DNA from: Escherichia coli
GTDB taxonomy: Bacteria > Pseudomonadota > Gammaproteobacteria > Enterobacterales > Enterobacteriaceae
Length of the DNA stretch: 1,014 nucleotides
Assembly (NCBI RefSeq): GCF_003334765.1
Contig: NZ_QOWT01000090.1
Direction: 5' to 3' (one strand)
The position numbers and the translations under genes are program-made. Position 1 is the stretch's first letter. Every line of letters begins with the position of its first letter. Positions 1 through 1,014 of the stretch are shown in pieces. The notes beneath the pieces are model-generated. The model worked only from the letters and a program-made list of their open reading frames with translations. It was not told the DNA's origin and did not search any database.

Positions 1-136
1 CAGCATCCTGCAGTGGCGCAATATACTCACTGAATTCCTGGATGTAGAACTGTGTGGTGACGGTCTTCCAGCCATTCGGCTCCTGCTGTATCGAAGCATA
101 CCAGGCTATTTCAATATCGCTATGCTGCGGCAGCAT
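1..136 (-). CDS. Partial CDS (start codon at 136-134, continues past window position 1): tail-fibre-assembly (Tfa)-like protein, N-terminal 45 codons
   Basis: Minus-strand translation from ATG (complement of 134-136) is MLPQHSDIEIAWYASIQQEPNGWKTVTTQFYIQEFSEYIAPLQDA, open to the window edge. An in-frame TAA (complement of 137-139) lies directly upstream, so the ORF cannot start earlier. A Shine-Dalgarno-like AAGGGG (complement of 141-146) sits 4 nt before the ATG. The segment EYIAPLQDA resembles the conserved ..EHIAPLQDA.. stretch of lambda-type Tfa proteins as I recall them. Unverified by search; only 45 codons are visible. Confidence 0.5.
   Translation of the reverse strand, partial: MLPQHSDIEIAWYASIQQEPNGWKTVTTQFYIQEFSEYIAPLQDA
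123..132. repeat. Left copy of 10-bp exact direct repeat TGCTGCGGCA, lying inside the first codons of the minus-strand Tfa-like gene
   Basis: Plus-strand 123-132 tgctgcggca is identical to 894-903. With one 3-nt indel (GCA unit) the match extends to 123-136 versus 894-904, which includes the start codon on the minus strand. Confidence 0.6.
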
Positions 137-192
137 TTAACCCCTTGTAATTCATCGCCATAATTGATTTAATTCACAAATAAAACTATAAC
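137..192. promoter_or_regulatory. AT-rich divergent intergenic region between the minus-strand Tfa-like gene and the plus-strand methyltransferase; candidate sigma70-type promoter for the methyltransferase
   Basis: 56 bp at about 27% GC (15/56, hand count) between two divergent start codons. Best plus-strand candidate: -35 TTGATT (164-169), 17-bp spacer, -10 TATAAC (187-192). A weaker alternative is -35 TTGTAA (145-150) with -10 TTTAAT (168-173). Hexamer matches in AT-rich DNA are weak evidence. Confidence 0.3.
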
Positions 193-861
193 ATGGTGAA
201 ATTAATGAAAAAAAACACAGATGATGGGGCTAAAATTTACACACCACTTACCCTAAAGCTTTATGACTGGTGGGTTTTGGGAGTATCAAATCGGCTTGCA
301 TGGGGATGTCCTACAAAGGAACACCTTCTTCCACACTTTCTGGAACATTTAGGTAACAACCATCTGGATATTGGTGTTGGAACTGGGTTTTACCTTACTC
401 ACGTACCTGAGAGTAGTCTGATATCTTTAATGGATTTGAACGAAGCTAGCCTGAACGCGGCATCTACAAGGGCTGGGGAATCAAAAATTAAACATAAAAT
501 TAGCCATGATGTTTTTGAACCTTATCCCGCGGCGTTACATGGTCAATTTGATTCCATTTCCATGTTTTACCTTCTTCACTGCCTGCCTGGAAATATATCT
601 ACAAAAAGCTGTGTAATACGCAATGCGGCGCAGGCCTTAACTGACGATGGAACTCTATACGGAGCCACAATTCTTGGCGATGGAGTTGTGCACAATAGCT
701 TCGGTCAAAAACTGATGCGCATTTACAATCAGAAAGGCATCTTTTCAAACACAAAAGATTCCGAAGAAGGCTTAACACATATACTCTCAGAGCATTTCGA
801 GAATGTTAAAACCAAGGTTCAAGGTACTGTAGTAATGTTTTCCGCTTCAGGGAAAAAATAG
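193..861 (+). CDS. Class I SAM-dependent methyltransferase (Rossmann fold), substrate unknown; alternative start at 205 gives 218 aa
   Basis: Single long ORF in the provided track (222 aa, stop TAG 859-861). Residue numbers count from Met at 193. Motif I LDIGVGTG at aa 58-65 (nt 364-387). Acidic post-I residue D81 in SLMDLNE. Motif II GQFDSISMFYLL at aa 117-128 (nt 541-576). Motif III-like LTDDGTLYGATIL at aa 149-161. N-terminal aromatic segment YDWWVLGVSNRLAW precedes motif I. No DPPY/NPPY or PC/ENV motifs. Confidence 0.85.
   Translation: MVKLMKKNTDDGAKIYTPLTLKLYDWWVLGVSNRLAWGCPTKEHLLPHFLEHLGNNHLDIGVGTGFYLTHVPESSLISLMDLNEASLNAASTRAGESKIKHKISHDVFEPYPAALHGQFDSISMFYLLHCLPGNISTKSCVIRNAAQALTDDGTLYGATILGDGVVHNSFGQKLMRIYNQKGIFSNTKDSEEGLTHILSEHFENVKTKVQGTVVMFSASGKK
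195..199 (+). promoter_or_regulatory. Shine-Dalgarno-like GGTGA serving the internal in-frame ATG at 205
   Basis: GGTGA matches the GGUGA portion of the extended anti-SD complement and lies 5 nt before ATG 205-207. No SD-like sequence precedes ATG 193-195 (upstream is caaataaaactataac). Confidence 0.35.
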
Positions 862-868
862 CATCCAA

Positions 869-901
869 CCGCAGCACGTTCTTGCTTAAGACGTGCTGCG
901 G
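869..901. terminator. Perfect 11-bp inverted repeat (stem 869-879 / 891-901, 11-nt loop 880-890) between convergent genes; candidate terminator, better oriented for the minus strand
   Basis: ccgcagcacgt (869-879) is the exact reverse complement of acgtgctgcgg (891-901), 8 of 11 pairs G:C. On the plus strand no T-tract follows (cataatccc). On the minus strand the stem is followed by ttggatgc then tattttt (complement of 853-868), a T-tract displaced by 8 nt. Non-canonical in both directions. Confidence 0.4.
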
Positions 902-903
902 CA
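894..903. repeat. Right copy of 10-bp exact direct repeat TGCTGCGGCA, overlapping the right arm of the hairpin and lying just beyond the stop of the minus-strand Tfa gene
   Basis: Plus-strand 894-903 tgctgcggca is identical to 123-132. On the minus strand it reads ATG CCG CAG CA (complement of 894-904), against ATG CTG CCG CAG CA at the left-hand gene start. Confidence 0.6.
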
Positions 904-915
904 TAATCCCAATGA

Positions 916-1014
916 TTACTCCCTGACAGGGTTCGTAGGCCACTCAATATCAGGTGCAGTTGATGTATCAACACGGTTCAGCAACACCCGATACTTTTTC
1001 CAGGCTTCCAGCAA
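916..1014 (-). CDS. Partial CDS (C-terminal 32 codons plus stop; N-terminus lies beyond window position 1014): tail fibre assembly protein (Tfa) family
   Basis: Minus-strand translation entering at 1014 is [32 protein letters not shown], ending at TAA (complement of 916-918). This closely matches the C-terminus of phage lambda-type Tfa proteins as I recall it (..[33 protein letters not shown]). Recalled from memory, not searched. Confidence 0.65.

Follow-up and report, generated by a model that had tools for sequence, protein, structure and literature searches.

Tail fiber assembly (Tfa) proteins are modular according to the summary given in PMC9608196 (citing North 2019), in which a variable N-terminal domain binds the fiber, trimerization being the role proposed for the conserved C-terminal helices. 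The only relative with a solved structure, Mu Tfa (PDB 5YVQ), aligns to lambda-type Tfa solely over residues 126-191. The closest described counterpart of the gene analyzed here is tfaX of Escherichia coli K-12 (b0563, ylcE), a gene of the cryptic prophage DLP12 that is flanked by ybcY and appY, the locus order being tfaD-ybcY-tfaX. The DNA stretch under study (the window, 1,014 nucleotides in full) is 99.1% identical to this K-12 locus, covering the 3' end of tfaD, ybcY and the 5' end of tfaX, and contains the following features.

1-136, minus strand: first 45 codons plus one base of the short ORF (tfaX ortholog), from translation; the ORF runs past the left edge of the window
1-40, minus strand: start of the tfa-derived segment (Tfa codons ~137-150), from DNA alignment with full tfa, three-way alignment with the parent genes and PF02413
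29-136, minus strand: codons 1-36, from the 5' end of a ~80-aa prophage gene family (PHROG 3893), by profile, tblastn, DNA alignment and hhalign
134-136, minus strand: ATG start of the short ORF, from the sequence
137-139, minus strand: in-frame TAA directly upstream of this ATG, from the sequence
141-146, minus strand: AAGGGG Shine-Dalgarno-like run, 4 nt before this ATG, from the sequence
137-192, no strand: 56-bp spacer separating the short ORF from the divergent methyltransferase gene
137-164, plus strand: sigma-70-like site TTAACC-16-CATAAT in the spacer, from a promoter scan
193-861, plus strand: class I SAM-dependent methyltransferase of the ybcY family, 222 aa, from the ORF list and RefSeq annotation
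869-901, no strand: hairpin with a 14-bp stem between the convergent tfa and methyltransferase genes, from RNA folding
916-1014, minus strand: 3' end of the resident 194-aa tfa gene (last 32 codons plus stop), from translation; full ORF at 6916-7500 of locus L001

The left-hand gene is the tfaX ortholog. It has the same start codon and the same N-terminal 61 residues as the K-12 gene, with a divergent methyltransferase neighbor in both, and, when the ORF is extended from genomes in which the window is 100% identical, it matches PHROG 2341 over the full length of the profile (E 5e-56; residues 1-87 to profile positions 1-87 of 88). Of 90 loci surveyed, the 87 that retain the start region of the ORF all have the divergent methyltransferase. 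The K-12 gene stops at codon 62 (TGG to TGA), yielding a 61-aa form, and K-12 ybcY is a pseudogene, whereas in the window the methyltransferase is intact and the ORF in window-identical genomes runs on to 101 aa (L001), to 89 aa with a native Tfa end (L018) or, through a frameshift, to 66 aa (L098); therefore, the window alone does not tell which form its own genome carries. RefSeq labels the gene as a partial tail fiber assembly protein, "missing N-terminus". We consider it likely, with a probability of roughly 80%, that this gene is a chimeric recombination remnant located beside a methyltransferase moron and not a tail fiber chaperone. The locus itself is already known as tfaX; new, but minor, are the derivation of its 5' third from PHROG 3893 and the duplicated tfa arms that accompany the moron into several prophage types.

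Minus-strand translation of positions 1-136 reads M-LPQHSDIEIAWYASIQQEPNGWKTVTTQFYIQEFSEY-IAPLQDA. The original prediction described an N-terminally short Tfa-like gene in which a start codon preceded by an in-frame stop is followed by the IAPLQDA motif at residues 39-45; the stop and the motif (window 2-22) are exactly so placed, and the shortness is borne out by PF02413, which is matched only from model position 75. The distance of about 50 residues between this motif and the C-terminus, given there for lambda-type Tfa, is 51 in the adjacent full-length 194-aa protein (residues 144-150; L001 6916-7500), and the anticipated size of ~90 aa equals the commonest form of the family, 88 or 89 aa. 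Within the window, the tfa-like part is limited to residues ~32-45 of the short ORF; only the first 14 residues of the conserved Tfa C-terminal helical region fall inside it.

With the extended ORF, the expected similarity to Tfa lies far above chance level, and it is confined to this helical region. The Caudo_TAP family of Pfam (PF02413) is matched with E 1.1e-17, residues 31-77 aligning to model positions 75-121 of 131, compared to positions 1-130 for the adjacent full-length Tfa (residues 72-191), and in a BLASTP comparison with the latter protein 39 of 46 residues are identical (E 6e-24). Residues ~32-75 of the L001 ORF are 85% identical to Tfa residues 137-180; codons ~37-75 of the short ORF correspond to Tfa codons 137-180, that is, to the conserved C-terminal helical region alone (IAPLQDA...LLNRVDTS), which is shared also by residues 112-174 of Mu U. 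At the DNA level, the tfa homology in the L001 ORF is a ~130-bp patch beginning near window position 40. Compared with the lambda-type Tfa of 194 aa, the short ORF lacks residues 1-136, including the fiber-binding N-terminal domain, in place of which its residues 1-36 match PHROG 3893 and no tfa family; the L001-type allele also lacks the APDIEWP...E terminus. None of the orthologous loci compared encodes a longer protein with the Tfa N-terminal domain. Since only the C-terminal helices of Tfa are kept, fiber recognition is not to be expected. The position of the gene differs as well: a tfa gene is expected directly downstream of its tail fiber gene and in the same orientation, whereas a hairpin and a convergent methyltransferase gene separate the short ORF from stf-tfa, and some of its contexts have no adjacent fiber gene at all.

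The first 36 residues come from another gene. The PHROG 3893 profile (79 positions) matches residues 3-37 of the ORF at profile positions 2-36 (E 5.7e-8), and hhalign against the parent family aligns residues 1-37 to 1-37 with a probability of 96.7% (E 3e-10). A tblastn search with residues 1-38 retrieves the family of this short ORF (hereinafter, the stub) and the N-termini of small ORFs in Klebsiella phages, among these a 79-aa ORF with 51% identity (E 8e-6), as well as weaker matches in HK225 (gp28), HK140, mEp390 and others. Both HK225 gp28 and the Klebsiella ORF match PHROG 3893 end to end, and a database search with the Klebsiella protein leads to a widespread enterobacterial family of ~79-80 aa that is named "DNA polymerase V" in NCBI records. 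The closest parents (P0185, P0163, P0155) share 72-76% of the first 36-37 amino acids with the stub and are unrelated to it beyond. Between the Shine-Dalgarno region and about codon 29 (window position ~50), the DNA is ~88-90% identical to that of the parent genes; parent-like sequence persists through CAGGAA (codons 33-34) and is followed by tfa from CAGTGAG-TAT-ATTGCG, which places the fusion junction at codons ~33-37 (window ~26-40), around CAGGAA/CAGTGAG. Upstream, the AAGGGG run aligns with the AAGAGAGGG/AAGAGGAG region that precedes the parent 80-aa genes in loci L095-L097. Homology to the parent loci begins only ~10-15 nt before the ATG, the parent upstream region being replaced in the window. 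The idea that residues 1-36 could be a diverged middle region of Tfa, compacted in a genuine Tfa of a short type, draws on a superficial likeness between QQEPNGWKTV of the stub and QKWNGTAWVKD of lambda-type proteins (QEPNGW against QKWNGTAW) and on a weak DNA alignment; the latter match is in a different reading frame, the Pfam alignment ends at residue 31, and the PHROG 3893 matches together with the DNA identity to the parents already refute this explanation, leaving it with next to no probability.

The parent proteins are predicted by AlphaFold to form one compact domain (pLDDT 92) that spans residues 5-73 and consists of a helix (5-15), a hairpin, helices 28-37 and 44-54 and two further strands. 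Relative to members of this family such as HK225 gp28 and the Kp4882-3 79-aa ORF, the stub has a homologous Shine-Dalgarno region, start codon and first ~36 residues but lacks the C-terminal 44 residues with helix 3 and the beta strands; of the whole domain of ~79 residues it retains the first helix, the hairpin and the second helix, that is, less than half. The genomic setting is not shared either. In the parent loci (L095-L097), the 80-aa gene is followed by a gene for an S24 (UmuD-like) peptidase and is divergent from dinI, whereas the stub has neither of these neighbors but the methyltransferase gene upstream and tfa-derived sequence downstream. A LexA-box-like palindrome, TACTGGATGGATATACAGTA, is located between dinI and the 80-aa gene (spacers at L095 ~230-290, L096 ~3966-4030, L097 ~3990-4054), which suggests that the 80-aa gene and the S24 peptidase gene may be jointly under SOS control; in the window, the stub is not preceded by this palindrome. 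Genes of PHROG 3893 are located at L095 290-559, L096 4031-4273, L097 4055-4297, L013 2501-2800 (HK225 gp28) and L014 2504-2743. Foldseek searches with the parent-family fold returned only weak winged-helix-like matches (best E 0.1), and the label "DNA polymerase V" is apparently erroneous, a transfer from the annotation of the neighboring gene. A "DinI family" pseudogene called by PGAP antisense to the stub (window 38-118, plus strand; 2538-2618 in L098, from strain NCTC86) has no HMM support and was rejected.

Together, the profile and DNA alignments show that two or three pieces are fused in frame in the short ORF. The first comprises the ribosome-binding site and the first ~36 codons of the ~80-aa PHROG 3893 gene and the second, codons ~137-180 of a lambda-type tfa; the third is the variable 3' end, which is either a native Tfa end (88/89 aa) or a degenerate one (101 aa), or is cut off by a premature stop. 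The 88/89-aa forms (the 89-aa allele is carried, for example, by L007) keep the last 14 Tfa residues, with native ends such as ANPVRE, TSPAE, EEPDTM and AVPVME. In the 101-aa ORF of L001, the sequence after DTS reads VALGMKLF... in place of the native 14-residue end. In a fixed register, 23 of the first 39 nt of this tail agree with another tfa 3' end, against a background with a mean of 9.9 and a maximum of 21 over ~10^4 registers; the tail thus resembles a tfa end that has degenerated, with loss of its stop, more than foreign DNA. The L001-type tail junction is found in 901 genomes. Other forms have 82 aa or 66 aa, the latter via a 7-nt deletion located just left of window position 1 and carried by phage 2G7b and strain NCTC86. 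The original prediction offered two alternatives for the short gene, a stand-alone C-terminal-domain Tfa or the stump of a gene whose 5' part was replaced when a cassette arrived. The evidence favors the stump, and the 5' part has indeed been replaced; the stand-alone Tfa finds no support, and a single replacement event does not agree with the several junctions observed and with the damage to the 3' end in many genomes. The new 5' part itself is not anonymous cassette DNA but comes, in frame, from the start of the unrelated PHROG 3893 gene.

The state of the stub was surveyed in 90 loci chosen for an intact 222-aa methyltransferase. An 88/89-aa stub with a native Tfa end is present in 62 of these loci and a 101-aa form with a degenerate tail in 14; the stub is cut by a nonsense mutation or a frameshift in 11 (one being an 86-aa form) and has lost its start region in the remaining 3. 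The 62 intact ORFs with their Shine-Dalgarno-like run, along with the existence of a separate family, PHROG 2341, speak against the remnant reading. They are also a reason to consider a functional stand-alone protein in which the C-terminal helices of Tfa, expressed alone, would co-assemble with full-length Tfa and either aid the resident phage or poison fiber assembly in superinfecting relatives. Such a protein would fit the presence of the stub in inducible phages (e.g., the PhiR series and 2G7b) and the structural model of the 101-aa ORF, which has an overall pLDDT of 59 and in which the two Tfa helices (residues 28-47 and 53-71) are the best-modeled part, with pLDDT of 66-76. It would, however, be devoid of the fiber-binding domain and carry less than half of a foreign domain at its N-terminus, and the nonsense, frameshift and degenerate-tail alleles are common, whereas the adjacent methyltransferase is intact at 222 aa in all 90 loci, which were selected by that property.

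The pattern of substitutions points in the same direction. Codons 1-36 contain 16 nonsynonymous variants, two of them stops, against 9 synonymous ones (pN/pS 0.59), compared to 21 against 28 (pN/pS 0.21) in the methyltransferase; these counts are small, come from loci ascertained via the methyltransferase, and a Fisher-type contrast between the two genes would not be significant alone. Pairwise values are 0.05-0.29 between parents, 0.13-0.39 between stub and parent, and ~0.5 between stub alleles. These values suggest relaxed constraint on the N-terminal piece, as far as can be judged from sequence variation. The density of intergenic variants was left out of the comparison and is probably inflated by misaligned indels. 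Differences between alleles in the Tfa piece are mostly synonymous, as expected if the variation was imported from functional tfa genes, and such import explains its low dN/dS without a functional stub. Searches of NCBIfam and of defense-system models (PADLOC) with the stub, the parent protein and the methyltransferase gave nothing significant, including no specific NCBIfam match for the methyltransferase; for a product that poisons related phages, the PADLOC result in particular is an adverse one. Altogether, we regard a functional stand-alone protein as unlikely. A specific version of it, in which the intact 88/89-aa alleles would encode an expressed decoy that forms mixed oligomers with the Tfa of related phages, interferes with or tunes fiber assembly and travels with the methyltransferase moron, is less probable still. 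Under the preferred reading of the gene as a chimeric remnant, the product of the short ORF would be unable to chaperone a fiber, and the ORF would remain open mainly through its youth and shortness.

Whether the stub is transcribed bears on the same issue. In K-12, the ybcY/tfaX spacer bound the RpoD holoenzyme in genomic SELEX and was flagged for H-NS (PMC3946193). RNA polymerase thus binds this spacer in vitro and transcription is possible, which counts in favor of a stand-alone protein. The published predicted -10 element of tfaX, TTAAAT (PMC3946193), overlaps the ATG, however, and accordingly a transcript from this promoter would lack the start codon. The promoter scan detected no minus-strand sigma-70-like promoter upstream of the stub ATG in the window. 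The binding data, together with the AT-rich spacer and its plus-strand sigma-70-like site, are compatible with another explanation as well, namely that the sole importance of the 5' part of the ORF is in regulating the divergent methyltransferase gene at the DNA level, either as an upstream promoter element or through nucleation of H-NS, with the ORF itself incidental. The strict linkage between the 5' end of the stub and the methyltransferase would agree with such a role but is explained equally well by physical adjacency, and the candidate promoter lies in the spacer, outside positions 1-136. This regulatory explanation appears improbable, slightly more so than a functional stand-alone protein. 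If the stub segment of a chimeric remnant had any role, it would be as DNA.

The chimeric remnant is part of a probably mobile module. Many E. coli chromosomes carry the window with 100% identity, and 3,790 of 5,426 complete genomes contain at least 80% of it; the stub-specific 157 nt (N-terminal piece plus spacer) occur in 3,437 of the 5,426, in up to four copies per genome, and copies number ~4,800 in 3,821 complete genomes. The window is found also in temperate phages, such as 2G7b, ev243 and the PhiR series. In O121 RM8352 (L001), it ends a DLP12-type lambdoid prophage, with the gene order J, lom, stf, tfa, methyltransferase, short ORF, alpha/beta hydrolase, ompT, envY, ybcH, nfrA. Four contexts of the module were distinguished: DLP12-type lambdoid prophages (L001, L002), P2-like prophages by ssrA/smpB (L004-L006), a position directly after a gpD gene (L003), and Rac-like prophages near trp that have an invertible fiber segment (L007-L010). 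Across these contexts, the core, made up of the tfa 3' end, the hairpin, the methyltransferase, the spacer and the 5' end of the stub, is 98-100% identical, whereas the left junctions inside tfa vary by context (q347, q573, q666, q688) and the type of the stub 3' end co-varies with the downstream flank. Such a nearly invariant core with shifting left junctions and flank-linked 3' types is the pattern expected if the tfa 3' copies are homology arms. The stub and the 3' end of the resident tfa would bracket the methyltransferase with ~130-230 bp of tfa homology, and homologous recombination in tfa 3' ends could then shift the methyltransferase together with the stump between unrelated prophages. 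An experiment on the K-12 copy is relevant here: under Red, 2 of 12 recombinants had arisen by exchange between the "unnamed pseudogene" of DLP12 by ybcX (= tfaD) and the final 200 bp of lambda tfa (PMC545071). From the mosaic patterns and this one Red-dependent experiment, we infer that the module has spread by recombination.

In its organization, the module resembles phage morons at the lambdoid tail fiber end, with an oppositely oriented, self-contained gene after tfa that has its own promoter-like site and hairpin terminator, and, as in mosaic tail fiber/tfa recombination, junctions are located inside tfa. It differs from ordinary morons in being bracketed by two tfa 3' ends, one of which is fused to the 5' end of another gene; in the window, this fusion yields an ORF annotated as "tail fiber assembly protein". 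In L007-L010 (4895-5280), the left junction of the module lies at a distance of only 97 bp from the stop of tfa, next to a fragment of a resolvase/invertase (60 aa), and the insertion was therefore not a simple crossover in a resident lambda-type tfa. Phage Ayreon (L012 2436-2640) was considered as a methyltransferase-free ancestor of the module. Its methyltransferase is reduced to the last ~35 nt, and the Tfa fusion is replaced, downstream of this remainder, by a full parent-type 80-aa gene in decay, which is interrupted by a stop at codon 33 and has lost its frame thereafter, so that Ayreon is a deletion derivative instead.

The consequences of these findings are modest, and the current understanding of tail fiber assembly is unchanged. 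Nevertheless, thousands of E. coli genomes label the short ORF "tail fiber assembly protein"; with no fiber-binding domain and half of its length derived from another gene, it should not be treated as a chaperone in predictions of host range or of receptor-binding modules. The locus further provides a worked example of a moron placed between duplicated tfa 3' ends in lambdoid, P2-like and Rac-like prophages, the spread of which fits tfa 3' ends as recombination hot spots, and it draws attention to a family of ~80 aa that accompanies dinI and umuD-like genes and is misnamed "DNA polymerase V".

The methyltransferase at the center of the module has an ambiguous start, at ATG 193 or at ATG 205 behind a GGTGA run. 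In a scan of viral contigs with this gene, only copies at least 99% identical were recovered, which offers no deep evolutionary contrast. Downstream of it, the hairpin at 869-901 is unusually stable (-23 kcal/mol, z -4.8, none of 200 shuffles as stable) and is likely the terminator shared by tfa and the methyltransferase gene. In the 89-aa alleles, the stub too is followed by a related hairpin, and therefore the duplicated tfa arm includes the terminator. The 45-aa "hypothetical protein" WP_001309429.1 annotated by RefSeq at window 806-943 on the minus strand overlaps both the 3' end of the methyltransferase gene and this hairpin, and is probably a spurious call.
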